Position numbers and translations under genes: made by a program
The notes under the pieces: generated by a model
Database searches by the model: none
What the model was told of the DNA's origin: nothing
The model's input: the letters and a program-made list of their open reading frames with translations, nothing else
In this document: one piece after another, positions 889-7,500 of the stretch
How positions within the stretch are numbered: position 1 is the stretch's first letter
Layout: each line of letters opens with the position of its first letter
Assembly (NCBI GenBank): GCA_963714975.1
Contig: CAVQQD010000002.1
Location: 960,001 to 1,024,000 of the forward strand
DNA from: an uncultured Gammaproteobacteria bacterium
Lineage (GTDB): Bacteria > Pseudomonadota > Gammaproteobacteria > JAURND01
Direction of reading: 5' to 3'
Length of the DNA: 64,000 bases

Positions 889-1330
889 ACCTCGGGGGCT
901 TGCGCCGCCGAGGCCGCGCCGAAAGAATGACCCAATCATTCTTGAGGCACTTTCACAACAACTACCTACATGAGAGGTTAGCCGCAGTGACAGCTTTAGC
1001 TTATCGCAATGTGCGTTCGCACAAAACTCTTTTCTTGAGGTTCACTTCATTTTTCACCTGGCGTTGGACTAGGCAATCGTGGTATGCCTGGATCAATCAG
1101 CTTTTACCCCATGAGAACTCCTCGATTGTCCGCGGCGTGTTGTGGACTTGGGGTACGAGTGTCCAGGTTTTTGGGGGGTGTTCATCCAGTCAACGAGGGG
1201 TAAGCGAGTAGCAGAGGAGTATAGGTATGGCGAAGTAACGCTGTATTTTCCTCGCTTCGCCATCACCTACCCAAATCCTCTGTTGCCGCTTACCTGATTC
1301 GATGCGTTCTTCGCATCCACCCAGGAACAC
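889..1330 (+). ncRNA. Candidate large structured RNA / 5' leader
   Basis: Run of hairpins (890-913, 924-943, 1010-1023, 1071-1089, 1128-1147, long stem 1199-1294, 1301-1317). G-U pairs form only on the + strand. No convincing ORF. Confidence 0.4.
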
Positions 1331-1334
1331 GCCG

Positions 1335-1544
1335 ATGACCCCGAATAAAATTAAACCCGTTTTCAAATACGACACAACTCACGCGCCCATTTCGTTTGAT
1401 CAGGCGCATTGTTTACTGACAATAAGTATTGGTCAAGAAGTGCACGAAGACGAATCCTTTGCGGCGACCACAGCTTTGGCACGCCAACAGTTTGCACGCT
1501 GCACTTTGTTCATTCCCTTTCAACAACAGGACACTTATCCATGA
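1335..1544 (+). CDS. 69-aa ORF resembling the N-terminus of an XYP-type tRNA-dependent cyclodipeptide synthase (truncated)
   Basis: AGGA SD at 1323-1326. Motif CLLTISIGQEVHE..F.AT..L..QQF..CTL recalls Legionellales CDPS-like proteins. Confidence 0.45.
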   Translation: MTPNKIKPVFKYDTTHAPISFDQAHCLLTISIGQEVHEDESFAATTALARQQFARCTLFIPFQQQDTYP

Positions 1545-3030: not shown

Positions 3031-4563
3031 TTATCTCCTAAAATCCCTTAAGCGCAGACCGGTTAACCACAGGCATCCCACATAACTTAATATAGCTATT
3101 CCAATCAAGCCAAAAAGATGCGAAACGCGTTGCTGCCAACCCCAATCTAACCAAGTAGTTACAGAGGGATTGATCCACCATAACAATGCAGCCATCACCG
3201 CACTGGCAAAAAATAATCTACCTAAATAAGCAATCCAACCTTTTTGAATGATGAAACCTTTTCGTGCCCATAATCCATAAAACAACAGGCCAGCATTGAG
3301 GCTGGAGGAAAGCGCAGTTGCTAAAGCTAAGCCTGCATGTCGTAACGACCAAATCAAAGCAAAATTAAGTGCCATATTGGCAAGTAATGAAATAACAGCA
3401 ATGCGCACTGGAGTTTTTATATCTTGTTGCGAATAAAAGCCAGAAGCAAGCACTTTGACTAACATAAAGCCAGGCAAACCAAAAGCATAAGCTTGCAAAC
3501 TCCAAGCTGACATCCACGCATCGTGCGGTTGAAAATTCCCATACTGAAATAACGCAATAAATAATGCTTGAGCCAAGAGATATAAACCAATCCCTGCTGG
3601 GATCGCAATCACTAAAACACAGCGTAATGCCCAATCTAGGCCGATAGAAAATTCCTCAATCGAGCCTTTTGCATATTGCTGTGATAAGTAAGGCAATACT
3701 ACGGTAGCTAGTGCCACCCCAAAAATTCCTAAAGGAAAATACGTGAGTCGATCTGAATAATACAACCAAGTAATGCTCCCTGGGGGCAAAAAAGAAGCAA
3801 ATAAAGTATCAATCAATAAACTTATCTGGGCTACAGACACCCCAAATAATGCTGGCACAAGCAATTTAAGTACGCGCCGTACTCCTGCATCTTTCCAAAC
3901 TAGCCGCGGCCAAACCAATAATTTATGCAAATAGAGTATAGGAAATTGAAACAAAAATTGCACCATGCCGGCAATGAGCACTCCCCAAGCTAGGGCTAAT
4001 ACCGGAGGGGTAAAATAAGCAGCCCCCCAAACGGCAGCAATAATCATCACTAAATTCAACCATGCCGGAGTAAAAGAAGGAACTCCAAAGAAGCCATAGC
4101 TATTTAAGACCGAGCCATAAAAAGCAGTCAGAGAAATTAACATCAAGTATGGGAAAGTTATCCGCAACATTTGGGTCGTTAACTCAAACCGTACTGGATC
4201 TTTGGCATAGCCAGGAGCAAATAAAGTTGTGAGCCAGGGCGTGCCAATGACCGCAAGGATGGTTACGGCCAGCAGAGCGATACCTAAAACCGCCTGCATT
4301 CGACTAATAAATTGCCGTACTTCAGCAAAGGAACGTTGTTGCCGATATTCGGAAAGCACGGGCACAAAAGCTTGGGCAAAAGCGCCTTCAGCAAACAAGC
4401 CGCGCATAAAATTCGGAATGCGAAAAGCCACATAGAAGGCATCAATGGCCGGCATGGCGCCAAATAAATGCGCGATTAATACATCTCGAATAAAACCCAG
4501 GATTCGAGAAATAGACGTCATGCCAGAAACTAAGGTAGTCGATCGAAATAAGGATTTGCTCAC
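3031..4563 (-). CDS. murJ: Lipid II flippase MurJ
   Basis: SRILGFIRD, AFRIPNFMRGLFAEGAF motifs, multi-TM. GTG start at 4563 overlaps the upstream TGA. Confidence 0.96.
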   Translation of the reverse strand: MSKSLFRSTTLVSGMTSISRILGFIRDVLIAHLFGAMPAIDAFYVAFRIPNFMRGLFAEGAFAQAFVPVLSEYRQQRSFAEVRQFISRMQAVLGIALLAVTILAVIGTPWLTTLFAPGYAKDPVRFELTTQMLRITFPYLMLISLTAFYGSVLNSYGFFGVPSFTPAWLNLVMIIAAVWGAAYFTPPVLALAWGVLIAGMVQFLFQFPILYLHKLLVWPRLVWKDAGVRRVLKLLVPALFGVSVAQISLLIDTLFASFLPPGSITWLYYSDRLTYFPLGIFGVALATVVLPYLSQQYAKGSIEEFSIGLDWALRCVLVIAIPAGIGLYLLAQALFIALFQYGNFQPHDAWMSAWSLQAYAFGLPGFMLVKVLASGFYSQQDIKTPVRIAVISLLANMALNFALIWSLRHAGLALATALSSSLNAGLLFYGLWARKGFIIQKGWIAYLGRLFFASAVMAALLWWINPSVTTWLDWGWQQRVSHLFGLIGIAILSYVGCLWLTGLRLRDFRR

Positions 4564-7500
4564 ACCCGCTCCACACCATAATGGGAGAATAAATAGTCCA
4601 ACCACAAGTCAGTTAAAATTTCTTGCATCCGGTTTTGTACGAGACGCTCATCTAAACTTTCTAAGTCTACCAATTCAAAAGGTTGGTCATGCCAAGAACA
4701 AGAAAATACCGCTTTGGTTCTTTTACCAGTATCAGGATCGACCTGCCATACAAGGCATTGGGCGCAAACCCCCTTGAGCATACATTGCATAGGCCCATAT
4801 ACCGAAGCAACAAATTTAGGGTTATTGAGAAAATAGGGTTTAAGCACACTATTTTTGGCGGTATAAAATGCCTTTAAAAAAGCATATTTACCAATTAGCA
4901 ACACTCGAGTGACTGCTTGCAAGGGAATTTCTGGGCTGCCTTCTAAGCCCCCCATGGCATAGCGCGCGAGCGTCGCAATTAAATCACCGGTGACAGCAAT
5001 ATCTTGGGGACGATTGCTAACAATAGGCTCGCCATGTTTGGTGACCCATATAATTTTATCGGCCGATTTTTCTAATTGCTCCATGCAAAATACTTCATCC
5101 GCCGTTTTAAATCCTGCCACATATAAGACACGATTGCCTGCAGCACGCATGGCAGCTCCTACCGACAAGAGATGAACAGCACTTAATCTCCCTCCAATCA
5201 CTAATACCGTTTCATTATCATGCGGGATTTTGGTTCGAACTCCGGTGGGGCCCATGACGGCGATAGGGTCGCCTGGGTGCAAAGTAGCAAATAGACGCGT
5301 ACTAGCCCCCTGCTCTAAAATCATAAAGGAAAGCGTGCCGGCTTGCTGATCTGCGTGACTGGCTAAAGCCGCAGTCCCCTCGGTTTGTAATGAAGTCTCG
5401 CCTACCACTGCGGCCTGGGTTTCAAAATTTTGCAGACGGTAAAATTGTCCGGGGGCAAAATTTCGTGCGGCCATGGGGGCATGAATTTTGAGTTCAATCA
5501 TACTCGGGGTATGGCGAATAATTTGCATGATCCGTGCATTAAACAATTGATTAATTTCGTTGGCAAAATTTTGATACTCCCGTAGATCCCCTATTCCTTG
5601 CGCTTTTTCACCCAGCGCTTGCAATATTTTTGGATAAGTACGTTTGCCTGAAGCAATGGCTTTTACTACACTGCCATGAAAAATGGGATGCGTGTCTCCC
5701 AAAAACGTGACTCGATAGCCCTGTTGTTGATAACTGGTAAAAGCGCCAAAATCTTCGATTTTACAATGTCCGTGCGGATGAACGACATGCAGCTCTCCAT
5801 TTAAATCATAGGCTTGGTATTCTGAGCCCTCCCGATGAAAAGTACCGCGATGTTCAAATTCATAGGCAATATTAGGTTTGGCTCCAGTCGCTACAAAAAT
5901 AGACTTGGCTGGTAACACATGTTCTTCATCACTTGCGACCCATTGTCGATTTTCATCGTAAAATTGCGATTCACTAATTAAAGCAGCCACATGCCCGTAC
6001 TCATCCAAACGGACTGCTTTTGGATTTAAACCTTCTGCATAATAAATGCCTTCTTCCAAAGCTTTAATGACTTCTTCATGATTTCTTAAGTAGGCTGGGG
6101 ATTCTCTTAACAAACGACGGTAGGCCACGGTGACGCCTCCCCAAGCTCGCAGCAGTGGAATAAAATTCACTGAGCGCTGTTGCTGCGCGGCCAGCTGGCG
6201 TTCTTCACGCACCAGGCGTCCATGGGTTAAAAACTCATTTAAGATCGCAAAACTGTGTTCATCAAATTGCTCACGCAGCCGTGCTTCTCCTAGCACCTCA
6301 GTCAGTCGTTCATAGCGATGCAAGACTTTTTCTACCTGCGCAATATAATAAGCCTGCACTTCAGTTGCCGTATCAATACCCGTCAGCCCACCGCCAATAA
6401 TTACTGCAGGTAAGCGAACTTGCAGCGTCGCTAAACTGCTTTCCTTGGCTGTGCCGGTCAGCTGTAATGCCATTAAAAAATCGTTCGCTTGCCGCATTCC
6501 GGGAGCCATGCTTCCAGGGATGGGTAAAGCTTTGGGTAACCCAGCACCCACGGCGACTGCCATATGATCAAAGCCTAAATCCCAAGCATCTTCGACTCGG
6601 ATCGTGCCACCAAAGCGGACATTGCCAAACACTTGAAAATGCGGACGACGGCAGAGGCTAATGTAAATGAGCTTCAGAAAATTTTTATCCCAGCGCACGG
6701 TAATGCCATACTCAGCCACACCACCAAATCCAGCCATAATTCTTTTATCTAAGGCCTCTTTAATGTCCTCATAACGATAAATAGGTTCTTGTAGATACAC
6801 AGCGGGCAAGGGCTCTATTTTTAGGCCATCGGCACCCACCACAGCACATCCCTCCATAAGCAAGTGATGCGCTAAAGAAAAGCCCGCTGGACCCATCCCC
6901 ATGACCAAAACTTTCAAGCCATTATAGGGTTTAGCCACCCACTGCGTTTGCCGAAGCGGATTCCAGCGAGTCAATAAATCATAGATTTCAACCCCCCAAG
7001 GTAAAGCGAGGACATCCGTCAAAATTCCGGTTTCGGTTTGCGGGATATTCACCGGATCTTGCTTTTGATAAATGCAGGCCTTCATGCAGTCGTTACAAAT
7101 TCGATGCCCTGTGGCTGGACACATGGGGTTATCGACCATAATCATGGCTAAAGCAGCAATCGGATAACCTTCTTTCTTTAGCACATGCATCTCGGAAATT
7201 TTTTCTTCCAAGGGGCAGCCTGTTTGTACTTCACCCAAGGGATTGGTTCTTAAGCCCTTCTCGGGTTCGCCTTTTTTTACCGGAAATCCTTTGGAACAAA
7301 AATCGCCATCTTTTTCATGACAGTACACACAGTAATGAATTTCATTGAGCACTTGGCGTTGAGTCATCCGTGGATCAGTCAGCATAAACCCATCACGGTG
7401 ACTAAAATTTTGCGGAGGTCCTTGCAGGCGACCCACTTCATCATTAGGCACCGGCTGCAAAGGAACCAATTGATAATAATCTAATTTATGTGGCAGCTGA

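Follow-up and report, generated by a model that had tools for sequence, protein, structure and literature searches.

The window analysed here is a stretch of 64,000 nucleotides (nt) from the genome of an uncultured gammaproteobacterium (contig CAVQQD010000002.1), and coordinates given without a contig label are positions within it. An initial annotation had flagged positions 889-1330 of the + strand as a densely structured RNA with switch-like alternative pairings, i.e. a novel cis-regulatory leader or small RNA (sRNA). Comparison with other copies in the same genome upholds a structured, RNA-like + strand element in leader position, whilst the proposed switch pairings found no support from those copies. 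We consider it probable that the element is a new, lineage-restricted, structured 5' leader that acts in cis at the post-transcriptional level.

Organisation of the locus

Directly 5' of a -35 element stands a TTAA-N7-TTAAG motif (832-847, +), and within this motif lies the TTAA pair of 11-bp spacing remarked upon originally (TTAA at 832-835 and 843-846). In most copies of the family described below this motif reads TAAG-N5-CTTAAG; it is kept in the 16 aligned copies of groups A and B, was not seen at the same place in four divergent copies, and may be a regulator binding site. There follows a sigma-70-like promoter (854-882, +), composed of TTGCAT (854-859), 17 nt and AATAAT (877-882), the site at 853-882 being the sole + strand promoter-like site within 600-2100. 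The sequence TTTGC[AT]TTT...GAATAAT occurs in the window and in all 15 other loci scanned, the general form in the family is TTGCAT, 17-18 nt, (G/A)ATAAT, and amongst the four divergent copies two contain TTGCAT-17-GATAAT by regular expression, the others being similar by eye. From the position of this promoter, transcription would be expected to start at about 887-889; the originally annotated start (889) agrees with the conserved promoter, whose -10 element ends at 882.

The putative structured leader (887-1334, +) consists of six paired elements, P1 to P6, and a linker, and is supported by its folding z-scores, by covariation in 16 copies, by strand bias and by the lack of any Rfam match. 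A Shine-Dalgarno sequence AGGAA (1323-1327) and start codon ATG (1335-1337) close the unit (1323-1337, +), the GGA and the ATG being aligned in 16 copies, with GTG as the start in the copy at C3:802k. The first frame downstream is a 69-codon remnant open reading frame (ORF; 1335-1544, +) in which the N-terminus of a cyclodipeptide synthase (CDPS) is fused to the last ~11 codons of a histidine kinase; the second encodes a stand-alone response regulator of 131 amino acids (1541-1936, +), the ATG of which overlaps the stop codon of the remnant (ATGA). A paralogue 85% identical to this regulator matches the Pfam family Response_reg with E 1.7e-19.

Predicted fold of the window copy

On the + strand, 889-1330 has a minimum free energy of -175.3 kcal/mol, compared with -137.6 ± 6.6 kcal/mol for 100 dinucleotide shuffles (z -5.73), and on the - strand -163.1 compared with -134.4 ± 5.8 (z -4.92). 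None of 100 shuffles was as good on either strand, so that folding exceeds this control on both. The motifs quoted there all lie where they had been placed, TTTTACCCC at 1102-1110, GGGGTAAG at 1197-1204, GGGTGTTC at 1176-1183 and CCAGGAACAC at 1321-1330. The count of at least seven hairpins is matched in our consensus model by P1 to P4, a branched P5 with three inner helices, P6 and a small hairpin at 1301-1317.

P1 (890-913, +) is a hairpin of the form CCTCGG...CCGAGG whose sequence varies by group with self-complementarity kept (CCGTGGGC/GCCCACGG in group B2, CCTCAG/CTGAGG in B3); the MAFFT alignment described below misaligns group B2 at this point, and pairing counts for P1 are therefore too low. 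P2 (918-948, +; GCC / AAGAATG ... CATTCTT / GGC) has 93.8% of its alignment cells paired and changes on both sides at three of its seven inner pairs. The small hairpin P3 (964-978, +; ACCT...AGGT) has 90.6% of cells paired and no double changes among the A and B copies; a group C copy carries another hairpin in the equivalent position. The unpaired motif AGCTTA (998-1003, +) is invariant in all 16 copies and is also found in locus L096. P4 (1010-1033, +) comprises the hairpin TGTGC-GTTC-GCACA (1010-1023), with both-side changes at four of six pairs, and the ensuing AAAACTCTTTT, which is near-invariant (10 of 11 positions).

The branched P5 domain (1027-1200, +) contains an outer helix, a CACCTG/CCAGGT helix, a hairpin at 1064-1096 and an arm at 1097-1164, with runs of U facing each other at 1050-1054 and 1168-1172; within the arm, 1101-1110 pairs with 1147-1160, and 8 of 15 pairs show both-side changes. 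The arm loop carries an anti-Shine-Dalgarno-like motif, TCCTCG (1119-1124, +); of the 22 rows in an alignment of P5 (A4, below), 20 contain its TCCTC, the misses being one likely false row and one intron-disrupted copy that reads TCTTC. P6 (1198-1295, +) is the long imperfect stem originally noted, with 35 pairs, four of them G-U, in the window; its parts are a conserved base, a helix of GCAGAGGAG with TCCTCTG, an A-rich 3' internal loop, and a tip that varies and in four copies is longer by ~65 nt. All 20 copies folded form a homologous long hairpin of common layout in this segment (z -3.9 to -13.1, mononucleotide shuffles). A hairpin in the linker, GATGCG...CGCATC (1301-1317, +), occurs only in the six aligned CDPS-type copies.

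A family of leaders within one genome

The genome comprises 2.56 Mb in three contigs, and a search of it with the flagged region returned 35 matches. An iterated nhmmer profile recovered 16 full-length copies, one copy split by an intron and about a dozen weaker rows. A covariance model, R1, which represents the P5 domain only and not the full-length leader, gave 17 matches at 133-173 bits and one weak fragment, and with filters off a further four divergent copies (14.6-47.9 bits). The family thus numbers approximately 21 (17 well preserved and four divergent), each with a sigma-70-like promoter and a leader of 435-520 nt. Homology begins sharply, ~60 bp upstream of 889, and takes in the promoter. 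Every one of the 21 preserved copies lies in the sense orientation directly upstream of one gene family, in seven cases of CDPS type and in 14 of regulator type, and leader fragments away from genes are short or low-scoring.

The initial annotation had named a match to a known repeat as grounds for rejection; the element does prove to be a dispersed repeat, with ~21 copies plus fragments, but not a known one. Dispersal of this kind might suggest a non-autonomous mobile element resembling a miniature inverted-repeat transposable element (MITE), or the end of an insertion sequence, an origin to which we give hardly any credence: none of seven inverted-repeat pairs in 700-1600 joins both ends of the unit, all 21 copies keep the same orientation towards the one gene family and the same distance from it, the longer flanks, genes included, that CDPS-type copies share fit segmental duplication, and no plasmid matched the leader family. 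Two other observations on the family may be recorded here. A decayed leader fragment lies elsewhere in the window (35066-35278) and is not followed by a regulator gene; nhmmer matches it to model positions 169-266 (E 4e-18), and R1 scores it at 26.5 bits. In locus L012 (C2:388000-394200) a group II intron sits inside one leader copy, between P2 and AGCTTA and in opposite orientation to the leader; the evidence is a 624-amino-acid ORF (positions 3668-5542 of that locus, +), similar by eye to an intron reverse transcriptase, and an Rfam Intron_gpII match (63.6 bits, positions 5525-5610 of that locus, +).

Known families and distribution

At gathering thresholds, Rfam 15 identified only a tRNA (37387-37458) in the whole window, and an E-value scan of 700-1700 (E<=10) gave six matches, all far below threshold and biologically implausible, the best being SNORA2 (24.9 bits, threshold 70) and mir-48 (21.4 bits, threshold 69); T-box was not among the six. 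The original failure to recognise a known RNA class is borne out in that these scans contain, apart from that distant tRNA, no family at threshold. Nor did Rfam yield a match to a CsrA/RsmA-sequestering RNA, and in the 16 copies invariant GGA occurs only in the P6 stem (as GAGGA) and in the ribosome-binding site.

Outside the genome, a BLAST-type DNA search of 40 relatives found no leader homologue, and R1 did not find the leader in eight other genomes of the order or, under stricter filters and with some genomes incomplete, in 150 other genomes of the class. Across 33 metagenomic loci with CDPS relatives (34-54% identity) the best R1 match reached 13 bits (E 0.58), and a single-protein CDPS scan of genome contigs confirmed no relatives. 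A scan of species-representative genomes with an IUPAC motif pattern returned 16 stretches, none of which matches R1. Three of its chance matches (L106, L109 and L110, on one contig of a Bdellovibrionales metagenome-assembled genome) are 5' ends of paralogous ORFs unrelated to the leader, with a shared N-terminus that by eye resembles a lipoprotein signal peptide.

The synthase family itself is widespread: of 339 candidates, 184 proteins fall at E<=0.001, and some carry the name cyclodipeptide synthase in records from Legionella and Endohaliclona; the CDPS relatives P0002-P0005 show 60-64% identity. When 11 metagenomic loci were inspected by eye, not with Pfam, a kinase sharing the membrane N-terminus came after the synthase in four to five of them. 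On this distribution, either this type of operon predates the leader or the leader diverges beyond the reach of a partial model.

Conservation of the fold

An alignment of 16 leaders was made with MAFFT, beginning immediately 3' of the -10 element and ending at the start codon; it has 562 columns with a mean column identity of 65%, and a consensus of 126 pairs was derived from base-pair probabilities averaged over copies. Canonical pairs fill 85.7% of pair cells, a share that drops to 41-48% in controls with the 3' partners slid one to three columns along, and changes on both sides of a pair were found at 39 of the 126 pairs (132 cells), compared with 12-24 pairs (22-49 cells) in the slid controls. 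In 500 column shuffles the observed values were never reached on four of five measures, and in 13 of 500 on the fifth. RNAalifold alone gave 73 pairs, of which 26 had changed on both sides. For P5 with the divergent copies included (alignment A4), 86.4% of cells are paired and 44 of 59 pairs carry both-side changes, compared with 20-26 in slid controls, in an alignment that was fitted to R1 and so leans towards structure, and that holds one probable false row (L023:739-864, -) and one weak row. Folded as a whole, the leader of a B2 copy had z -8.67; that of a group C copy, with quite different P1-P3 sequences but its hairpins in the same order, had z -10.19.

The strand on which the element folds was assessed in several ways. 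In the consensus, itself obtained by folding the + strand, 245 G-U cells contrast with 85 A-C cells. Independently of this, 15 of 16 copies fold more stably on the + strand (mean -190.2 vs -173.4 kcal/mol), and RNAalifold gives -47.8 with 73 pairs for the + strand and -31.0 with 41 pairs for the - strand. The orientation of both promoter and gene agrees with the + strand, which on these comparisons is the folding strand.

A 103-codon ORF (900-1211) traverses much of the leader, and an ORF of 73-112 codons with the same end is open in 15 of the 17 listed copies, as would be expected if a small protein were encoded here. Column entropy is nevertheless 0.706, 0.727 and 0.691 at codon positions 1, 2 and 3, i.e. 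without periodicity or any excess of third-position variation. Single-nt insertions and deletions shift the frame between groups (TCCTCG, for example, stands in differing frames), Pfam and NCBIfam each returned no family for this ORF, and other frames on both strands are long and open too, consistent with the low A content (0.20-0.23). We accordingly reject a coding origin, including the decayed gene that the initial annotation had raised as a possible refutation, and the small protein seems to us wholly improbable. On these patterns, selection has kept the fold and not a reading frame.

Substitution rates bear on the same question. Between groups, the regulators retain 37-50% amino-acid identity and 32-46% identity at third codon positions, near saturation, and the leaders keep 60-65% (82% between B1 and B2); in young pairs the leader rate lies between that of first and second codon positions and that of third positions. 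These values are pertinent to the view that there is no RNA function; the similarity would then be that of DNA regulating a gene family amplified in the recent past, maintained by duplication and gene conversion, and the hairpins would be incidental. Such a view would sit well with the confinement of the copies to one genome (none in the eight same-order and 150 same-class genomes or the 33 metagenomic loci), with the degradation of many copies, and with the abundance of repeats in the genome, into which an intron has also inserted at least once. We regard it as unlikely, however: changes on both sides preserve pairs far above the slid and shuffled controls, P1-P3 of groups C and D are hard to align and yet have hairpins in the same places (as shown for one group C copy), the downstream third codon positions are saturated and the leader is not, and the z-scores for folding, -5.7 to -10.2, lie well outside what chance would give.

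Downstream genes and history of the operon

In CDPS-type copies the leader precedes three genes, the first for a 250-amino-acid protein of the cyclodipeptide synthase family, the second for a 465-amino-acid kinase with PQ-loop, PAS, HisKA and HATPase domains, and the third for a 131-amino-acid receiver-only response regulator. A profile of 24 synthase-family members matched solved cyclodipeptide synthases (PDB 5ocd_A, E 2.6e-79; 5mlq_A, E 5.3e-44), the single sequence matching TIGR04539 with E 1.5e-4, below the cutoff; by profile similarity, the first gene is a cyclodipeptide synthase. The operon is laid out in this way at L009 (C2:10900-14800, -). A synthase combined with a membrane PAS histidine kinase and a receiver-only regulator looks like an uncharacterised cell-cell signalling module, in this case one built on a cyclodipeptide. 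In the titles and abstract openings of literature on cyclodipeptide synthases with histidine kinases, Legionella or quorum sensing, neither this operon type nor the leader RNA was described.

The regulator-only loci can be traced to this arrangement. One of their subgroups starts with the synthase N-terminal peptide (MNDNNIKPAFK vs MNPNKIKPVFK), which indicates that such loci derive from full operons by deletion. In the window, the remnant ORF (1335-1544) arose by an internal deletion of ~1.9 kb, homology to full-length copies breaking at 1514/1494, and the copy at C2:616k carries a different deletion. These two internal deletions, in the window and at C2:615.6k, are independent of each other, and both drop synthase and kinase and retain leader and regulator; the junction in the window (1494-1544) falls at a short shared stretch, CTLLI/TLFI.

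Only the CDPS-type copy at C2:14k looks intact throughout, several others being degraded by frameshift, insertion sequence (IS) insertion or deletion, and the many degraded copies suggest that insertion sequences and pseudogenes abound in this genome. Family members at C3:470.5k and C2:1177.5k are interrupted by large ORFs, judged transposase- or TnpB-like from their N-termini only. Close to the unit in the window, two overlapping small hydrophobic ORFs (128 and 120 amino acids; 57-763) upstream of the leader gave no Pfam match above cutoff. A short palindrome of a C-run and a G-run (CCCCC...TTTTTCAAAGGGGG; 1993-2034) separates the regulator from ribF; it recurs ~35 times over all three contigs at 84-97% identity, and would be either an element similar to repetitive extragenic palindromes (REP) or a shared bidirectional terminator.

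Ribosome-binding site and candidate alternative pairings

The switch pairings proposed for the window copy fare poorly in the wider family. Pairing of TTTTACCCC with GGGGTAAG is absent among the aligned-column helices that are paired in at least 85% of the 16 copies, and GGGTGTTC, suggested as a switch strand, is present only in the window and C3:802k among these copies, and also in the intron-split copy. Nor was a conserved masking of the ribosome-binding site found, its predicted partner varying by copy group: folding predictions pair the site in the six synthase-type copies (in four with the P4 loop region, in the window with a U-run), and only partly in the remaining groups.

One other candidate emerged from the alignment, in which the (C/U)UCCUC loop (1118-1123) is complementary to GAGGA(G/A) in the 5' strand of P6 (1214-1219). 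The outermost pair of this helix covaries, being C-G in five copies, U-A in nine, U-G in one and incompatible in one. GAGGA also pairs within P6, and pairing with the UCCUC loop and formation of P6 would therefore exclude each other; from this single covarying position we infer a candidate exclusive switch. A mini-ORF after GAGGAG (ATG 1227) was considered and rejected, being lost in groups in which the covarying pair has T -> G.

A more ambitious interpretation is a new large sensing RNA, similar in logic to a riboswitch or T-box, that would read a signal from the chemistry of the operon (the cyclodipeptide produced, or how far the tRNAs used by the synthase are charged), flip between the P6 duplex and UCCUC-loop/GAGGAG pairing, and thereby set expression of the module family. 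We think this a long shot.

The folded RNA might alternatively be the product itself, i.e. a trans-acting sRNA or protein sponge released by termination or processing, for example at P6, with the downstream gene as a mere passenger expressed by read-through. Its large, stable, multi-domain fold and the invariant single-stranded AGCUUA, AAAACUCUUUU, UCCUC and U-runs could bind protein or RNA, and ~21 near-identical promoters would provide high dosage. The leader is also intact beside a broken gene at C3:471k, C2:1177k and C2:267k, and P4 with its U-rich tract was flagged as terminator-like, the sole + strand site so flagged, although four A's before the T tract make it an atypical terminator. 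No canonical terminator, however, lies between leader and start codon, the leader ends ~45-85 nt from the ribosome-binding site in all 16 aligned copies, gene-less pieces of the leader are fragmentary, and intact leaders beside broken genes may reflect recent breaks. Whilst deserving of consideration, a trans-acting product is on balance doubtful.

Interpretation

The explanation that we favour, and hold to be probable, remains a new cis-acting leader restricted to this lineage. A folded leader of ~450 nt would be co-transcribed with the downstream genes from the sigma-70-type promoter (854-1334 in the window). The ancestral unit would have comprised leader, CDPS, PQ-loop/PAS histidine kinase and receiver-only response regulator, from which repeated internal deletions would have generated loci with leader and regulator only, the window copy amongst them. 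The leader would act in cis once transcription has started, on translation, processing or message stability, and may so place all members of the gene family under one shared control. Long duplexes such as P6 are the kind of structure cut by RNase III, and P6 is a candidate processing or protein-binding site; as a further candidate step, the invariant UCCUC loop in P5 and the 3' strand of P6 may be rivals for pairing with the purine run GCAGAGGAG.

Several points weigh against this explanation. The transcript and both of its ends are deduced from sequence. No conserved partner that would hide the ribosome-binding site was found across the copy groups, masking of that site by a freed P6 3' strand was rejected as a candidate, 9-70 of 100 shuffles reaching the observed value for each of the 16 copies, and no convincing internal terminator was found in a scan of 600-2100, which returned only the atypical P4 site. 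As the consensus was derived from + strand folding, both the paired percentage and the G-U/A-C count are tilted in favour of that strand, and the fitting of A4 to its model, with one probable false and one weak row, weakens what can be drawn from it. All of the comparative data come from paralogues of one genome, which are related and which gene conversion may have homogenised. In the youngest pair the leader is 92% identical and coding third positions 96%, perhaps a consequence of gene conversion of the gene, and the degraded CDPS-type copies mean that some leaders may now be relics.

Nevertheless, if the explanation is correct, this would be an undescribed family of large structured leaders, with ~21 diverged copies in one genome providing a rich internal source of comparative data. 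The practical limit is that the leader RNA has so far been seen in one genome only. Three questions become tractable with this family: how a long leader coordinates a whole set of paralogues, whether new sensing RNAs lie hidden in the long leaders of host-associated gammaproteobacteria, and how operons shrink through repeated internal deletion with retention of the control region.

Comparison with known systems

T-box leaders, riboswitches and ribosomal-protein leaders likewise occupy the sense strand between promoter and ribosome-binding site, and share with the present family a multi-helix fold with compensatory changes, invariant loop or bulge motifs, and repetition before functionally related genes. 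In contrast to these, the family described here has no Rfam match, no conserved terminator/antiterminator or sequestering helix was found in it, and it is known so far from one genome; typical riboswitches and T-boxes are, in addition, shorter than 435-520 nt. In size (several hundred nt), intricate conserved structure and narrow lineage range the leader is reminiscent of OLE, GOLLD, ROOL, HEARO and raiA RNAs. Those families are represented in Rfam and are mostly stand-alone genes or linked to mobile elements, whereas the leader shows no similarity to their models and is fused to a promoter and a ribosome-binding site that serve one gene family, with ~21 copies per genome.

REP elements, bacterial interspersed mosaic elements (BIME) and MITEs also have many copies per genome and strong hairpin potential on both strands. 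The leader differs in being much longer, in its strict orientation and position with respect to one gene family, in including a promoter, in lacking terminal inverted repeats, and in showing compensatory evolution and a G-U strand bias. Finally, 5' leaders processed by RNase III are known from rnc, pnp and the phage lambda N leader, and have in common with this family a long, near-perfect duplex, here P6, a few tens of nt before the start codon. P6 would be the candidate site of cleavage here, and the large upstream P1-P5 domain sets the present leader apart from those examples.

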